Below are positions 31,089-54,128 of a DNA stretch of 64,000 nucleotides, one piece after another. The stretch lies in IMG/VR virus record IMGVR_UViG_3300027969_000041. The stretch is one strand, 5' to 3'. Every line of letters starts with the position of its first letter. The first letter of the stretch is position 1. The notes beneath the pieces are model-generated. The model was not told where the DNA came from, searched no databases, and saw only the letters and a program-made list of their open reading frames with translations. A program made the position numbers and the translations under genes. The stretch is from a virus. Lineage: Duplodnaviria; Caudoviricetes.

Positions 31089-33926
31089 TTAAGGTAATTT
31101 TTTCTTAATTTCGTCTATTTCTGTTTTAAGCTCTTTAATTGCTTCAATTACTAGACCGATAATGTTACCGTAGGCAACAGAATATAATCCGTTTTCGTTT
31201 AATCTCACAGCTTCAGGTAGAACAGATAATAATTCCTGCGCAATAACACCTGTACTGTCCACGCCGTCGTCGATACGAGTAAACAATACACCTCGTAATT
31301 TTAGAAGTTTATCTAGGGCATTTTCAATAGTTCTAATGTTAGTCTTTGTTCGTTCGTCTGATGTTATAGTAACGTCTACAAACTGTGGTGAACCGCCCGT
31401 TGTCAAGTTTTGTGTCATTGACAGGCTAAGAGTACTACCAGAAAAACTGCCCTGAACACCGTTATTACCGCTAACAGTTATGCTAGCAATACCGCCCGGA
31501 CCTGATGGACCGCTTGGACCACTTACATTACTAGGTTGATTACTGGCTGCATTACTTGCAGGACCTGATGGACCGCTCGGCCCTTGACTTCCTTGATTCC
31601 CTTGGTTACCTTGATTCCCTTGGTTACCTTGATTTCCTTGAGGACCTGATGGTCCACTTGGACCTTGATTTCCTTGAGGACCTGATGGTCCACTTGGACC
31701 TTGACTGCCTGGATTACCTTGATTACCTGGATTACCTTGATTACCTGGATTACCGGCTGCATTACTTCCAGGCCCTGATGGTCCTTGTGCGCCACTCGGA
31801 CCTTGAGGTCCACTTGGTCCTGATGTATTGCTACCTGGACCACTTGGACCTTGACTTCCTTGGTTGCCGTTTGGACCACTTGGACCACTTGGTCCTTGTG
31901 CTCCTGCACCCGAAGGTCCGCTCGGACCAGATACAGTACTTGGAGTGTTATTTGTAGGTCCTGATGGTCCTGATGGACCACTTGGACCAGCTGCATTACT
32001 TCCAGGACCCTGTGGTCCACTCGGTCCTTGTGGACCCGATGGTCCAGATACAGTACTTGGAGTGTTATTTGTAGGTCCTTGTGGACCCGATGGTCCACTT
32101 GGACCTTGAGGTCCTTGTGCGCCACTTGGTCCTTGCGGACCACTTATTGCACTGGCTGCTCCGCTCGGTCCTTGTGGACCTTGAGGTCCTTGTGCGCCAC
32201 TTGGTCCTTGCGGGCCCGACACAGTACTTCCTGCACCGCTTGGTCCTTGTGGACCTTGAGGTCCTTGTGAGCCAGTAGGTCCTTGTGGGCCTTGTACACC
32301 CTGCGGACCCATAACAGTTCCGAGGTCAATCCATGAAACTCCGTTCCAATACCATATATGATTATTAGTTGTTAATTGATAAGCATCACCTACTTGTGCT
32401 CCGGCCGCATAGCCAGCTAATTCTGATGTATTACCAATTGTACCTCTAACAATAACAAACTGTCCAATAGGTCCTTGCGGTCCCTGAGGTCCTTGCGGGC
32501 CACTTGGTCCTTGATTACCTATTGGTCCCTGAGGTCCTTGCGGTCCCTGAGGTCCTTGCGGTCCACTTGGCCCTGACATATTACTGTCAACACCCGCAGT
32601 ACCTTGATTTCCTCGCGGTCCACTTGGTCCTTGCGGGCCACTTGGCCCTTGTGGTCCCTGTGGGCCTTGAGCACCTGACGGGCCACTTGGTCCCTGAACT
32701 CCTTGTGGTCCAACAAACGGCCCTACGTCAGTCCAGCCACTTCCGTCGTAAACATACAAGTGACCGTTGCTAGATATAATGTATCCATCATTAATTTGCG
32801 GGTTAACAATGGAGTTTAGATCAGATACATTGGCTCTAGTGCCTTTAACTACTAATGCTGCACCTACTGGGCCACTTGGTCCCTGAGGTCCCTGCGGACC
32901 TTGTGGTCCTTGTGCTCCTTGATTTCCTTGATTCCCTTGAGGACCTGATGGACCTGATGGTCCTTGCGGGCCTTGAGGACCTTGTGGCCCACGCGGCCCT
33001 GATGGTCCAGATGGACCGCTTGGTCCTTGTGGTCCTGATGGACCTGATCCTGTGAATTCTACACCATTTTGATAAAGTTTGCCGCCAAAGTAAATGTCCT
33101 TGGCAACACCTAATCCACCTGAAACTACGGCTGCTCCTGTAGTAGTTGATACAGCATTTGTAGTTGTAGTAACGAGTACTTTAGGAACAGATAATGCACC
33201 TGTGCTGGCTAGGTAACTTAAATTACTGTCAACACCCGGAGTTAGATAAGATCCTGGTCCTGCTGCTAATGTAGGATAATAAACTGTAGTAGTATTGCTA
33301 AGATCACTAATTAATACTTTAATTGCTTGACCTGCATTATCAGGAACAATAGTAGATGTACTGACCCAAGTAGCAGTAGTTCCATTACTTTGCAATAGAT
33401 ACCCGGTAGGACCTATTCCAATGAATCCTGTAGTATTAGGTGCTGTTTGATAAGGAATGCTACCTGTAGAACCACCGGCAATGTTTGTGAGTAATGTAGA
33501 CACAGGTCCTTGAGGACCTTGATTACCGCGTGATCCTTGAGGGCCACTTGGTCCCTGATTCCCAGGATTTCCCTGATTCCCAGGAACACCGATTGGTCCT
33601 TGTGGTCCCTGTACTCCACTTGGTCCACTTGGCCCTTGCGGCCCCTGAGGTCCTTGCGGTCCACTTGGTCCCGATGGGCCACTTGGTCCCGATGGGCCTT
33701 GCGGTCCCTGCGGTCCCTGAGCACCTGATGGTCCTTGAGGTCCACTCGGGCCTTGTGGTCCTTGAGGACCGGGATCGCCTTGAAGTTGTAATAACTCAGC
33801 TGCCTGTTCTGCTGTTAAGTATTGTTCTACAGATGAATCTGCTACGATAAACTTGGTCTCACCAAGCGTAGGTGTGGTTAAATTAGTGTCTAAAACCTGG
33901 GGCAGCGGTGATCTGTTAGTGGTCAT
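31089..33926 (-). CDS. Collagen-like tail fibre with C-terminal intramolecular chaperone (peptidase S74-like)
   Basis: Long Gly-Pro-Gln/Gly-Pro-Ser runs; SDERTK..GVIAQEL..VAYGN..EAIKEL. Confidence 0.9.
31495..33780 (-). repeat. Collagen-coding 9-nt-period repeats, including a 36-bp direct repeat
   Basis: GGACC/GGTCC periodicity; identical copies at 31927-31962 and 32044-32079. Confidence 0.9.
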
Positions 33927-33987
33927 TTGTTTAGGTACCTATCATTATATATGCAATAGTATATTTATTAAATCAAAAACTAGGAGA

Positions 33988-34383
33988 TTACCAATTTGTG
34001 ATATTTGTTGCAGTGTTTCCTAATCTAATCCATGTGTTTGTTGCCACACAAACATATAGATAATTATTGTTATACGACATTGATCCTGCAATTCCGGTAC
34101 TAGTTGAGTGAGCTATTGTGGCATTATTTGCAGCAACGACCGGACCTGAAGGACCGGACGGTCCACTTACTGTGCTAGTTGGTCCTTGCGGTCCCTGCGG
34201 GCCACGAATACCTGTAATACCATCTAATCCTCTAGGACCTGTTGAACCAGTATCTCCTTTTGCTAAGGTAGTTAGCTGTGACAACGACATTTGTTTGGTT
34301 CTATTATCAGCACGATCGATTACGGGAATTAGCACATCAGTGGCTGTACTGCTTAATTGAGGTAATTTGTTAATAGTGGTCAT
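33988..34383 (-). CDS. Short collagen-containing tail protein
   Basis: INKLPQL N-terminus, GPQGPQ, YLYVCVATNTWIR C-terminus. Confidence 0.8.
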   Translation of the reverse strand: MTTINKLPQLSSTATDVLIPVIDRADNRTKQMSLSQLTTLAKGDTGSTGPRGLDGITGIRGPQGPQGPTSTVSGPSGPSGPVVAANNATIAHSTSTGIAGSMSYNNNYLYVCVATNTWIRLGNTATNITNW

Positions 34384-41099: not shown

Positions 41100-41270
41100 T
41101 TACCAATGCCTTATAACACCTGCTATAATAAAACAATTTGTTATTATATAGCATAATACAATGGCAGTACGGATAAAAGCAATCTTGTCTGCCTCTCTAT
41201 CTGTACTGCCAGATTTTTCACCTAGGGCTTTTGCCCAAAGCTTCCAAAGGTTATGCAAATAGATCTTCAT
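41100..41270 (-). CDS. Small membrane protein
   Basis: WKLWAKALGEK..TM; start uncertain. Confidence 0.6.
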   Translation of the reverse strand: MKIYLHNLWKLWAKALGEKSGSTDREADKIAFIRTAIVLCYIITNCFIIAGVIRHW

Positions 41271-41757
41271 TCCATTCACGATGCCCTTCACGGAACGCCA
41301 TGTTAGCCTGTGTTTCACGAACTTCTACACGATAACACCACAGTCTAGCCGCTTCACCCGGTCCCCACATTTCTGGAATGTAAACGCCGTTGACATACTT
41401 ATATAGCATATCGCTCAATGCTTCGCATCCTAATGCCGGTAGAATAACGATTTTAGCCATATTTTTTTCTTGTAGCATTTTGAATGTACCTAGTTCTGGA
41501 TCATCCTGTGCAACAATAAGTGTATGATCAAATTGATCTTCTAATGTTTTCTTTAGTTCTTTTAAACCACCATAGTCGGCCGCCCAATTGCGAACATCTA
41601 GGTCGTTGGTGCCAAAGTAAAATTTCATACTAAATGAATAGCCGTGAATTAGATTACAATGACTATCACTTCGCCATTGGCGATAAGCGCAAGGGAATGC
41701 GTCGTGATATTCTTTGGTGCTTGTGTACTTGTACAGTACTGGTTGTAGGTTTGCCAT
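41251..41757 (-). CDS. queD: QueD / 6-pyruvoyl-tetrahydropterin synthase-like protein
   Basis: CAYRQW..HCNLIHGYS, FDHT, GCE, VRET. Confidence 0.85.
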   Translation of the reverse strand: MANLQPVLYKYTSTKEYHDAFPCAYRQWRSDSHCNLIHGYSFSMKFYFGTNDLDVRNWAADYGGLKELKKTLEDQFDHTLIVAQDDPELGTFKMLQEKNMAKIVILPALGCEALSDMLYKYVNGVYIPEMWGPGEAARLWCYRVEVRETQANMAFREGHREWNEDLFA

Positions 41758-41830
41758 AATTTTCTCCTATGTTAATTTTAGCATAGGCAGCAGAGTTTGT
41801 ATACCGGGATGAAAGCCGAAGGCCGGTTAG
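41758..41830 (-). ncRNA. Candidate preQ1-I-like riboswitch / structured leader
   Basis: ACCGG-CCUUCGGCUUUCAUC-CCGGU-AUACAAAC, then a CCUAUG/CAUAGG hairpin over the SD. Confidence 0.5.
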
Positions 41831-41832
41831 TG

Positions 41833-42006
41833 TTATTTAAGGTTTTTAACTTCCTGTTTAACAATTTTTAGATCTTCTTTGATCTCGTTAATCATATTAA
41901 TTTCTGCTTGACGATTACAATACAATTGTGCTAATGTAATAGCAAATAGACTCCATCCTATAAACCCACCTGCTATTAAAAATCCTATTATTAAATTATT
42001 TGCCAT
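41833..42006 (-). CDS. Small membrane protein
   Basis: N-terminal TM plus coiled coil; start 42006 after GGAG. Confidence 0.65.
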   Translation of the reverse strand: MANNLIIGFLIAGGFIGWSLFAITLAQLYCNRQAEINMINEIKEDLKIVKQEVKNLK

Positions 42007-42067
42007 AATGTTTTCTCCCATAAGTGTCAATATTTACTTAAACTTAAGAGAGGATTTAGTCCACAGT

Positions 42068-42652
42068 TTATCGTTTGTCAACAATCTTATCGCAGAGTCC
42101 GTAGGCTAGTGCTTCTTCTGCACTCATAAATGTGTCACGATCCATGTCCTTTTCGAACTCTTCATATGTTTTACCCACTGTATTATGTTTAACATATAGT
42201 TTGGTTAGCATATCTTTCATTTTGGTAATCTCTTGGTATTGAATAGCAATGTCACTTTGCATACCACGGGCACCACCACTTGGTTGATGAATCATATGGC
42301 GAGCATGGGGCAACATATAACGCTTACCCGGACTACCTGCTTGTGCTAGGAAACTGCCCATTGAGCAGGCTTGACCCATAACATAGGTACAAATATCTGG
42401 TTTGACAAACTGCATGACATCATAGATTGCCATTCCGCTGGTTATAACACCACCTGGACTATTGATATAAAAATGAATATCTTTTTCGCTGTCTTGACTT
42501 TCAAGATGCAGTATTTGAGCAACAATTAAATTACTGCTAATATCATCAACTCCACCGTTAAGGAATACGATGCGCTCGTTGAGCAATCGGCTAAAAATAT
42601 CAAAGGCACGTTCGCCTTGCCCGGTCTTTTCGACCACCATTGGTACTAACAT
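42068..42652 (-). CDS. clpP: ATP-dependent Clp protease proteolytic subunit
   Basis: DIFSRLL, YINSPGG, ACSMGS, MIHQP, DRD triad. Confidence 0.97.
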
Positions 42653-42653
42653 A

Positions 42654-43076
42654 TTAAAATTCATCCTTTAAAATTTTTGTAGAATTACTTAATCCGGCAA
42701 CAATTTGGAATTGTTCCCATGCTTTTTTCACAGCAGGCCTACTTTCTAGTTCTTCTGCTGGTAAACTTGCTTCGAGCCAGTAGTAGGGCAATCGATGTGG
42801 ATGTGCTCCAAACTGGCGAGGCTGATGTAACAGGCCCCTGCTATATAGTTCTTTGGATACATATCGAAACTTTTCTTCGTCCTTGTCTGTGTAGCGACTC
42901 CACTCGGGGTTACTCCATCCGCCGTGGTGATGATATCCCTGCCAGATACCACCCCACTGTTCGTCGTTGTTGGGGTCGAAATTTGTACGAGCAACAATGA
43001 CTAATACATCATTGATGTCTACCTTGCCGTCTATAATGTCTCTAACACATCGACTATAACTAAGTCCTATTTTCAT
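42654..43076 (-). CDS. Hypothetical protein
   Basis: 140-aa ORF; [12 protein letters not shown]. Confidence 0.75.
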
Positions 43077-52415: not shown

Positions 52416-53162
52416 TTAACGAGGCGCAAATTCTTGTTGTAATTTGATATTATCAAAAAACTCTTTTTTAGTATTGCCGTCATCTTTGAATGCACCTTTG
52501 AGTACAGTTGTCTGTGTTAATGAACTATGCGCCATAATGCCGCGATTCTCACAGCATCCGTGTACTGCCTGGATGTAAACACCTAGGTCTTTGGCTCCTG
52601 TGGCTTTTTCGATTTCCCTAGCAATGTCATTACAAAGTTCCTCCTGGAGAGTACCTCGACGGGCACACCACTGTGCGATGCGAGTGTACTTGCTGAGTCC
52701 GATGAGTTTCTCAGCGGCAATAATGCCAATATAAGCAACCCCACTAACGGGTTGGTGATGATGGCTACACATACTGCGAAGCTCACTACGAACAACAAGC
52801 ATACCTTCATAACGGTCCGCTGAGTCGTTGGGAAATGCTGTTGCGTCTGGTGCTGGTTCATATCTTCCTGCCATAATTTCATTAAAGTACATTTTAGCAA
52901 GTCGTCTCGCTGTACCTTTACTGTTAGGATCGTCTTCACGATCAATAAGCAAACGATCTAGCACTAATTCAAATGCTTCTGTAGCTTCGTCAATCAGTTG
53001 TTCTTTGTTATAGTCGTTAACATATTCGCTAATGTTATCGCCTGCCCAAAACCTTTTTCCGTCGCGTCTCATCTTTGCGCGAAGATAGTTACCTAAATAC
53101 TGCTCTTCTTGATAGCCGCCATCGCCTGCCATTGCGTCTAACCCTGTTTGTCTATTTGTCAT
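52416..53162 (-). CDS. folE: GTP cyclohydrolase I
   Basis: TARRLAKMY, SMCSHH, GLSKYTR, LQEEL, HGCCENRG. Confidence 0.96.
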   Translation of the reverse strand: MTNRQTGLDAMAGDGGYQEEQYLGNYLRAKMRRDGKRFWAGDNISEYVNDYNKEQLIDEATEAFELVLDRLLIDREDDPNSKGTARRLAKMYFNEIMAGRYEPAPDATAFPNDSADRYEGMLVVRSELRSMCSHHHQPVSGVAYIGIIAAEKLIGLSKYTRIAQWCARRGTLQEELCNDIAREIEKATGAKDLGVYIQAVHGCCENRGIMAHSSLTQTTVLKGAFKDDGNTKKEFFDNIKLQQEFAPR

Positions 53163-53237
53163 TATAATTGTTCTCCGATGTTAAGGCAGTGGATTGCCAT
53201 ATGTATTAATAGTACAGTATTATTTAGGTTCTGTCAA
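53163..53237 (-). promoter_or_regulatory. sigma70 promoter plus structured folE leader
   Basis: TTGACA-N17-TACTAT; GGCA-AUCCAC-UGCC-UUAACAUC-GGAG. Confidence 0.6.
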
Positions 53238-54128
53238 CCGTAGTAGTGTATTTTTTCTAACAGCGGCATCCAATACCATCATGCTAGCACCTACTTCTTC
53301 TGCGTATTTGAGTAAGGCAGCTGTGTCTTTTGGAAAGCAAGCACCACCGAAGCCGAATAATCCATCAGGACCTGGCACCCTCAAGTGGCTTGAACCAATT
53401 CTTGAATCTAAATTGACCATACTTATCACAGTATTGTAGTTCATACCGCCTGCTATTGCAACATTATGTATTTCATTCATAAATGATACTTTAGTTGCTA
53501 GATATGTATTGATAGTATACTTGGCTAGGGCGGCTTCATCAATGGTGCAGAAGCGAACATTTTCACCGATGCCAGGTTGTCCCCAGCGAATAATACGTTC
53601 TGCATCTCGTTGATATGCACCCACACAACCGCCAATGATAGCAAACTTGCCGTTAGCATAATCTCTACTAGCATCTGCGGCAGTTAAAAACTCAGGAGCA
53701 TGGACTAGATTTTTATGTTTTGTCTGTAGTGCTTTATAAACACTAGGAGGTGCTGTACTTTTGCTAATTATAACTCCATTGTATCCTAAAGATGCAAGTT
53801 TATCTAATGCACTTTCTAGATAGCTAGTATCGCAACTGCCATCATCGCCTTGTGGACTGGGAACACATATAAACACACCTTCGCAGTCTAACAGATCTTC
53901 ATACTTGCCCTGCAGGCCTTTAGGAGGATCTACCAAAATTAGATCACAGGCATGTTCCATGTTATCTCTAATAGCACTGCCGACAAATCCCAATCCGACA
54001 ATACCAACCTTTGGCGGCTTATTAAAAAACATTTTATTTTCTTTCTTTATATTAATATAATTATCTGCAACTTCATCAGCAAAGATAATTTTTGCACCAC
54101 CTAAAGTACCGGGCATGTCAAGAGTCAT
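53220..54128 (-). CDS. UDP-glucose/GDP-mannose dehydrogenase family protein
   Basis: GLGFVG, ICVPSP, KST, PEFL, GFGGACFPKD; start could be 54032. Confidence 0.92.
   Translation of the reverse strand: MTLDMPGTLGGAKIIFADEVADNYINIKKENKMFFNKPPKVGIVGLGFVGSAIRDNMEHACDLILVDPPKGLQGKYEDLLDCEGVFICVPSPQGDDGSCDTSYLESALDKLASLGYNGVIISKSTAPPSVYKALQTKHKNLVHAPEFLTAADASRDYANGKFAIIGGCVGAYQRDAERIIRWGQPGIGENVRFCTIDEAALAKYTINTYLATKVSFMNEIHNVAIAGGMNYNTVISMVNLDSRIGSSHLRVPGPDGLFGFGGACFPKDTAALLKYAEEVGASMMVLDAAVRKNTLLRLTEPK

Follow-up and report, generated by a model that had tools for sequence, protein, structure and literature searches.

The window, by which we mean the whole 64,000-nucleotide stretch analysed here, comes from a virus of the Caudoviricetes (IMG/VR record IMGVR_UViG_3300027969_000041), and the sequencing runs that contain it are freshwater and lake metagenomes from several studies. 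On its minus strand it encodes a QueD/PTPS-like protein of 168 amino acids (41251-41757) that matches PF01242 at 56 bits and phrog_2389, described as 'QueD-like'. With TIGR03367, the QueD equivalog model, the protein scores 33.8 bits against a cut-off of 89. Its AUG start codon (41757-41755) follows a Shine-Dalgarno (SD) sequence, AGGAG, at 41764-41768. Further upstream on the minus strand is a 65-amino-acid open reading frame (ORF; 41833-42030), hydrophobic in its N-terminal half and likely to encode a small membrane protein, which stops 5 nt before the leader motif described here; ClpP (42068-42664) lies upstream of that ORF. The window also encodes FolE (GTP cyclohydrolase I; 52416-53162, minus strand), and at 31480-34180 it carries long 9-nt periodic repeats of the GGNCCN type in a collagen-like Gly-X-Y gene.

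The leader of the queD-like gene, on the minus strand throughout, contains a 5-bp stem, P1, formed by ACCGG (41823-41827) and CCGGU (41803-41807). P1 encloses a 15-nt loop, CCUUCGGCUUUCAUC (41822-41808), which holds L1 (CCUUC, 41818-41822), the 5' strand of P2a, the variable part of a pseudoknot helix (GGC, 41815-41817), the 5' strand of P2b, the near-invariant extension of that helix beyond a U-C mismatch (CA, 41810-41811), and L2 (UC, 41808-41809). The tail 3' of P1 reads AUACAAAC (from 41802), with AUACAAACUCUGCUGCC lying between P1 and the SD hairpin; it includes L3, AUACAAACUC (41793-41802), which is A-rich with a near-invariant UC at its end. The 3' strand of P2 (41786-41792) consists of UG (P2b), C and U (mismatches) and GCC (P2a; 41788-41786, the partner of the loop's GGC), and the P2b pairs are C41811-G41791 and A41810-U41792. 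Last comes a hairpin (41766-41787) in which CCUAUG (41787-41782) pairs across a 10-nt loop with CAUAGG (41771-41766), covering the first three bases (AGG) of the SD. The first two C's of this hairpin are the last two bases of P2. The initial annotation had described the 5-bp stem, the A-rich tail and the 6-bp hairpin on the SD, and all three are present on the minus strand where it placed them; the pairing it proposed between the loop GGC and the tail GCC is there as well, and overlaps the hairpin by two C's.

Within L1, C41821 is invariant and U41820 is 89% conserved in relatives; the first base of L1 is variable, and its length ranges from 3 to about 10 nt (alignments A2, A3 and A4). C41808, in L2, immediately precedes the 3' half of P1 and is also invariant (column 27 of A2 is C in 101 of 101 sequences).

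Folded alone with RNAfold, the window leader reaches -12.9 kcal/mol, compared with -12.66 ± 2.28 kcal/mol for shuffled versions (z -0.11), which is no excess of structure. Its P2a is also the weakest seen: GGC/GCC provides 3 bp and is followed by U-U, at a position where relatives have A-U, G-C or U-A. We judge the structure to be real because of comparative, not thermodynamic, evidence. A purely DNA-level account, in which the region is only a terminator of the upstream small ORF joined to a promoter, or P1 is a chance stem, would fit the single-sequence z-score, and scans mark a terminator-like site at 41814-41828 (opposite strand) and a promoter-like site at 41803-41775. However, the sense strand has no U-tract after P1, and many relatives have a promoter ahead of the motif and no ORF that terminates at this point. 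Given also the compensatory changes in two helices, described below, we consider a DNA signal or a chance stem very improbable.

A scan of IMG/VR with the QueD-like protein gave 594 related loci, 80 of which were kept for leader comparison, and compensatory changes were evident in the leaders of these relatives. P1 occurs as ACCGG/CCGGU, AGCGG/CCGCU, AGAGG/CCUCU, AGUGG/CCACU, UGCGG/CCGCA and ATCGG/CCGAU, and once as AGUCG/CGACU. An alignment of 47 sequences has P1 paired throughout (100%), and three of its pairs covary; when 101 sequences are aligned with a P1-only model, 99.6% of the P1 cells are paired, and the two-sided changes are AU/UA, GC/CG/UA and CG/AU/UA. The G-C pair that closes P1 never changes (G in column 7 and C in column 28 of A2, 101 of 101 sequences). 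Together with P1, the loop-to-tail helix P2 makes an H-type pseudoknot. The initial annotation had proposed looking for covariation across phage queD leaders, and it is there: four of the five P1 pairs covary in the 101 relatives and all five P2 pairs tested change on both sides, counts that come from related phages, so that the events behind them are not independent.

In the alignment fitted to P1 only, 74% of the P2 cells are paired, compared with 39-48% for the whole structure with slid partners. The covariation score of P1 and P2 together is 0.403, against 0.145 ± 0.011 for shuffled alignments (none of 500 reaches 0.403) and at most 0.105 for slid ones. When tails are permuted among sequences, the mean length of P2 falls from 3.69 bp to 3.14 ± 0.09 bp, and the maximum of 1000 permutations is 3.43 bp. 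These P2 statistics take in the AAACUCUGC class; 'cross' controls are unsuitable, the GGC/GCC core being common to them. The versions of P2 include GGCA/UGCC, GGCG/CGCC, GGCU/AGCC, GGUG/CACC, GACA/UGUC and GACGC/GUGUC, as well as GGCAU/AUGCC, GGCAU/AUGUC, AACG/CGUU, GAAC/GUUC, GACUU/AAGUC and AUGACUU/AAGUCAU. Some of these, for example GGCAU/AUGUC and GACGC/GUGUC, contain G-U pairs that are valid on the sense strand only, which points to RNA rather than DNA and counts further against the DNA-level account.

Beyond the variable part of P2 and the U-C mismatch, the loop CA can pair with the UG of a conserved UCUGC, and RNAduplex predicts this composite helix in relatives. Among 218 unique motifs, 211 have A/U at the second P2b pair and the other 7 have G/C; none mixes the two, and the G/C cases precede three different protein subfamilies. 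As modelled from the alignments, the aptamer is built of a 5-bp P1, an L1 of N-C-U plus 0-7 nt, a 2-nt L2 (mostly UC), a 10-nt L3, and a composite P2 made of a variable helix of 3-7 bp, the U-C mismatch and near-invariant C-G and A-U pairs. L3 is A-rich (UAYAAAY), with columns 35, 38-40, 42 and 43 of A2 conserved at 97-100%. About 17 unpaired positions are 82-100% conserved, and the downstream proteins share 30-98% identity. A short variant (L503, L496, L506, L513, L485, L507 and similar loci, at about 335-390) has a 4-bp P1, AAGG/CCUU, and an L3 that is 3 nt shorter, which fits an L3 that spans P1; its P2 is GGCG/CGCC, it has a helix sequestering the start codon, and it scores 11-16 bits with model R1.

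The motif is closely tied to the gene behind it. Among 120 matches listed from a pattern scan of IMG/VR, 116 had a perfect P1 and 116 had a PTPS-like ORF downstream, the proteins being 30-98% identical to that of the window. Conservation at these loci (L110-L229) is partly forced by the search pattern; sets chosen by protein are free of this bias. In one divergent subfamily chosen by protein only, the motif is present at 78 of 80 loci; of the 80 loci of a second such subfamily, 59 have a strong match, 11 have a weak one (the short variant, identically placed) and 2 are truncated by the end of the contig. The numbers of loci matched in three protein-based scans were 594, 529 and 597, in sets that may overlap, and the motif seems to be retained before a queD-like gene on considerably more than a thousand contigs of uncultured phages. 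In place of the window's whole genome we used five large relatives (157-383 kb): a search with the motif model yields a single copy in the window and a single copy per relative, and the copies in the relatives coincide with the sites of QueD-like genes from the protein search. The folE leader of the window (53162-53260, minus strand) was considered as a further copy and rejected, since model R1 has no match there; it carries a consensus-like sigma70 promoter (TTGACA-17-TACTAT) and a plain small GGCA/UGCC hairpin.

A methyltransferase gene or a cupin gene separates the motif from queD in a few contigs. At L119 (1-70, 1000-1048) a second, degenerate motif (34 bits) stands ahead of a 309-amino-acid SAM-methyltransferase-like gene that lies directly upstream of the intact motif and queD; the arrangement resembles an insertion that duplicated the leader.

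In the cultured phages searched and among the cellular-genome matches sampled, the motif is nearly absent. A blastn search of cultured phages with the motif gave no matches; the cultured phages of INPHARED contain related QueD proteins (at most 53% identity) that lack it, and queD of Acidovorax phage ACP17 has no leader. Among 120 pattern matches listed from cellular genomes, 8 had a perfect P1, which is the chance rate. The sole real copy among them, L342 (a genome_contigs record, about 2018-2070), has a GACUU/AAGUC P2, a sigma70-like promoter and a queD-like gene, and is probably a phage contig binned into a metagenome-assembled genome. On the comparative evidence, the pseudoknot in the queD-like leader is a real, strongly conserved and apparently phage-specific element, and very probably a regulatory one.

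The arrangement of the helices suggests how it would act. In the window the SD hairpin is worth -4.9 kcal/mol, and with the CC/GG pairs removed it has no fold (0.0 kcal/mol). Since the CC belongs to both P2 and the hairpin, the pseudoknot and the sequestering helix are mutually exclusive. The hairpin covaries in relatives (CCUGUG/UAUAGG, CCUAUA/UAUAGG and CUCUAUU/AAUAGAG). Other leaders have start-codon helices instead (UGUCGUC with GAUGGCA, GCCAUUG with CAAUGGC), and another leader type has an SD helix of UGUCUUGCUAU with AUAGGAGACA; every one of the four leader types allows the 3' strand of P2 to pair with the ribosome-binding site or the start codon. Across 137 leaders, pairing between the P2 3' strand and the initiation region averages -8.74 kcal/mol, against -7.05 ± 0.15 kcal/mol with permuted partners and -4.64 ± 0.15 kcal/mol with shuffled strands. 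Competition between the loop-tail pairing and the anti-SD hairpin, which the initial annotation had suggested, is thus conserved, and in the window the hairpin cannot fold without the two C's of P2.

In the mechanism we propose, a locked pseudoknot would leave the ribosome site free and the QueD-like protein would be made; with the pseudoknot not locked, the hairpin would close and translation would be off. Because P2 contributes a 3' strand complementary to the SD or AUG and does not contain the SD itself, the predicted regulatory sign is the reverse of that of preQ1-I, and switching in vivo should be in the ON direction.

Promoter-like sequences surround and enter the leader. A TAAATA box (41834-41839, minus strand) lies 6 nt upstream of P1, overlapping the TAA stop of the 65-amino-acid ORF (41835-41833), and could be a phage late-type promoter; TAAATA or TAAGTA occurs 3-24 nt upstream of P1 in 62 of 78 leaders of the window's type (type a). 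Over the whole window TAAATA is found 28 times on the coding (minus) strand and 11 times on the plus strand, with 18 of the 28 at most 120 nt ahead of the start of an ORF. The longer ATAAATA occurs 8 times where 28.5 would be expected, a threefold depletion, and all but one of its copies are on the coding strand. We take TAAATA to be a probable phage promoter box. A promoter scan also placed a sigma70-like promoter, TATACA-17-TGcTAAAAT (41775-41803, minus strand), inside the window leader; its -35 element falls in L3 and its -10, of the extended kind, within the loop of the hairpin. Of the 78 type-a leaders, 71 have such an embedded promoter scoring at least 9/12, compared with 1 of the 59 leaders of other types, and 31 of those 59 have a sigma70-like promoter (at least 9/12) just upstream of P1. 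In many relatives a near-consensus sigma70-like promoter ends 4-12 nt before P1, which places the motif at the 5' end of the mRNA. Contigs of relatives from RNA libraries extend into the leader, with the proviso that DNA carry-over could produce them and that starts are not resolvable from contigs. A transcript from the embedded promoter would lack the aptamer and the 5' half of the hairpin, so that window-type leaders may give two transcripts, with the switch acting on the longer one only.

The embedded promoter offers a ligand-free way to explain the sequestering hairpin in window-type leaders. A ligand-independent structure could be an operator for an RNA-binding protein of phage or host, or a promoter-dependent translation device, in which long transcripts would hide the SD and those from the embedded promoter would not. 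Phage T4 provides precedents of both kinds: gene 32 is autoregulated through a pseudoknot at the 5' end of its leader, and the late genes e and soc show promoter-dependent SD sequestration. Like e and soc, window-type leaders have a promoter inside the SD hairpin whose transcripts would escape sequestration, and the position of the -10 in the hairpin loop and the box upstream of P1 are both kept in most of these leaders. The T4 genes e and soc are not known to have a conserved pseudoknot upstream, as these leaders do, and the same aptamer core, with its competing pairings, is kept on the other platforms, where the embedded promoter is missing (1 of 59). A simple anti-sequestor would not need some 17 invariant unpaired bases, neighbourhood clustering found no conserved gene for an RNA-binding protein with the motif, and the regulated gene encodes a small-molecule enzyme. 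A ligand-independent structure is therefore, in our view, unlikely.

We compared the motif with known RNA families. Rfam 15 gave no match at the gathering score on the window and none at E<=10 on 601 nt of it. The sole match on a 106-nt slice was to preQ1-II (RF01054; 15.7 bits, gathering score 47), which we rejected as an artefact because only the flanks are aligned and the 69-nt core is deleted; preQ1-III (RF02680) gave none on this slice. The preQ1-I model, RF00522, run over the whole records of the five relatives at E<=10 per genome, gave a background of 9.5-21 bits (gathering score 39) and nothing at the motif loci.

The initial annotation had read the leader as a preQ1-I-like aptamer, and the likeness is considerable. 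PreQ1-I aptamers are H-type pseudoknots with a conserved P1-closing G-C pair, a specificity cytosine 5' of the P1 3' strand and an A-rich L3; the ligand is also read by an L1 uridine and the last adenine of L3 (PMC11625349). Compared with RF00522 in its types I-III (B. subtilis queC, T. tengcongensis, C. antarcticum, E. coli), the phage motif has the same H-type fold, 5-bp P1 and invariant G-C, and C41808 occupies the position of the specificity cytosine, a feature of that family (PMC11625349). As in type I, this C is usually preceded by U. An A-rich L3 with a conserved C towards its end, a downstream gene of queuosine-pathway type and predicted translational control are shared as well.

The differences are equally specific. 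PreQ1-I has U or UU as L1; the motif has N-C-U plus a variable insert, with U as the first base in 44% of sequences only and the next two bases (C, U) conserved. L3, at 10 nt, ends in U-C (99-100%), not in A, and P2 is a composite of 5-10 bp with an L2 of only 2 nt; each of L1, P2 and L3 exceeds its preQ1-I counterpart in length. P2 contains no SD and carries the anti-SD/anti-AUG strand, so that folding is predicted to turn translation ON, not OFF. The motif is also essentially confined to uncultured phages. What the motif has of preQ1-I is the H-type pseudoknot, P1, the A-rich L3 and the invariant C; family membership is not supported. The motif functions like a relative of preQ1-I yet cannot be filed as a member.

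The genes that accompany the motif bear on whether it could nonetheless be a very divergent true preQ1-I member that binds preQ1 or preQ0. Near the motif we find FolE at 33 loci, a QueE-like radical-SAM protein, identified by neighbourhood clustering, at 38 loci, and a phosphoribosyltransferase at 20 loci. The QueE-like gene is present in four of the five large relatives, including the complete 383-kb one, which has FolE-, QueD- and QueE-like genes, and homologues of the QueD-like protein in cultured phages adjoin QueC or QueE. A generic radical-SAM search for QueE was uninformative, with 14 matches in one genome (G001, a 383-kb relative of L065, where many lie at 220-236 kb). This neighbourhood and the shared hallmarks of fold speak for membership. 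In the complete 383-kb relative, however, Pfam models gave no credible match to QueC (PF06508) or to TGT/DpdA (TGT, PF01702), and a weak PP-loop gene beside QueE, considered as QueC, was rejected because it is an NAD synthase. With RF00522 silent at the motif, and with the differences in L1, L3, helix length and regulatory sign, we regard true membership as rather unlikely.

The enzyme itself may depart from QueD. Nearly all motif-linked proteins have SHC-x3-HGY in place of C-x3-HGH, L183 alone being canonical. The change from HGH to HGY replaces one zinc-binding histidine, so the enzyme chemistry may be new, and the motif-linked enzyme may differ from QueD in its metal site or its chemistry.

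We think it probable that the leader of the queD-like mRNA acts in cis as a conserved regulatory RNA, most likely a riboswitch aptamer some 45-50 nt long with ON logic. It bears the generic marks of a riboswitch: a conserved, structured aptamer in the 5' leader, a gene-specific link and mutually exclusive pairings. Counting against a riboswitch are the weak P2a of the window (3 bp and U-U) and its fold z-score, noted above, and ON logic would be unusual for a biosynthetic enzyme. Ligand binding, the identity of the ligand and the direction of switching in vivo are what we infer. The invariant unpaired bases flank the junction of P1 and P2, where a small planar ligand would stack. Because an invariant C adjoins P1, and because of the pathway, our guess is a guanine-like ligand, a 7-deazapurine or pterin, with any compound of the branch that has a guanine face as a candidate.

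ON-type translational control of this kind is familiar from the add adenine riboswitch, a cellular RNA built on a three-way junction. As in add, an aptamer competes with a helix that hides the ribosome-binding site, and ligand is predicted to open translation; unlike add, the phage motif is viral, and its switching strand is one strand of the pseudoknot.

To our knowledge, riboswitch classes found only in viruses are essentially unknown, and a literature search found no description of this motif. The initial annotation's remark that riboswitches are rarely reported in phages agrees with the literature, which calls them rare, describes a glutamine riboswitch in marine myophages, and has the few phage riboswitches on record as cellular classes carried along (PMC9004378). 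Like the glutamine riboswitch, our motif is a phage-encoded candidate metabolite sensor on a phage gene. Phages have borrowed the glutamine riboswitch from cells, where the class is known, whereas the motif has no cellular counterpart in Rfam and the 120 cellular matches listed gave none beyond chance. More tentatively, then, we suggest an uncatalogued, phage-specific riboswitch class that would sense an intermediate or precursor of the FolE/QueD-like/QueE-like pathway (GTP to 7-deazapurine or pterin) and turn the QueD-like gene ON, with the embedded host-type promoter bypassing the switch early in infection in one subtype; this is a plausible proposal that we would not yet call likely. Candidate ligands for such a class are dihydroneopterin triphosphate, CPH4, CDG, preQ0 and guanine.

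The motif is predicted to control the second enzyme of a 7-deazapurine/pterin branch with the shape of preQ1-I and the opposite sign. If it binds a ligand, it would show how a minimal aptamer fold can be re-engineered, through a longer P2, a two-base L2 and a new end of L3, and would identify a metabolite on which phages keep watch while they infect. Synthetic biology would gain a compact ON-switch.
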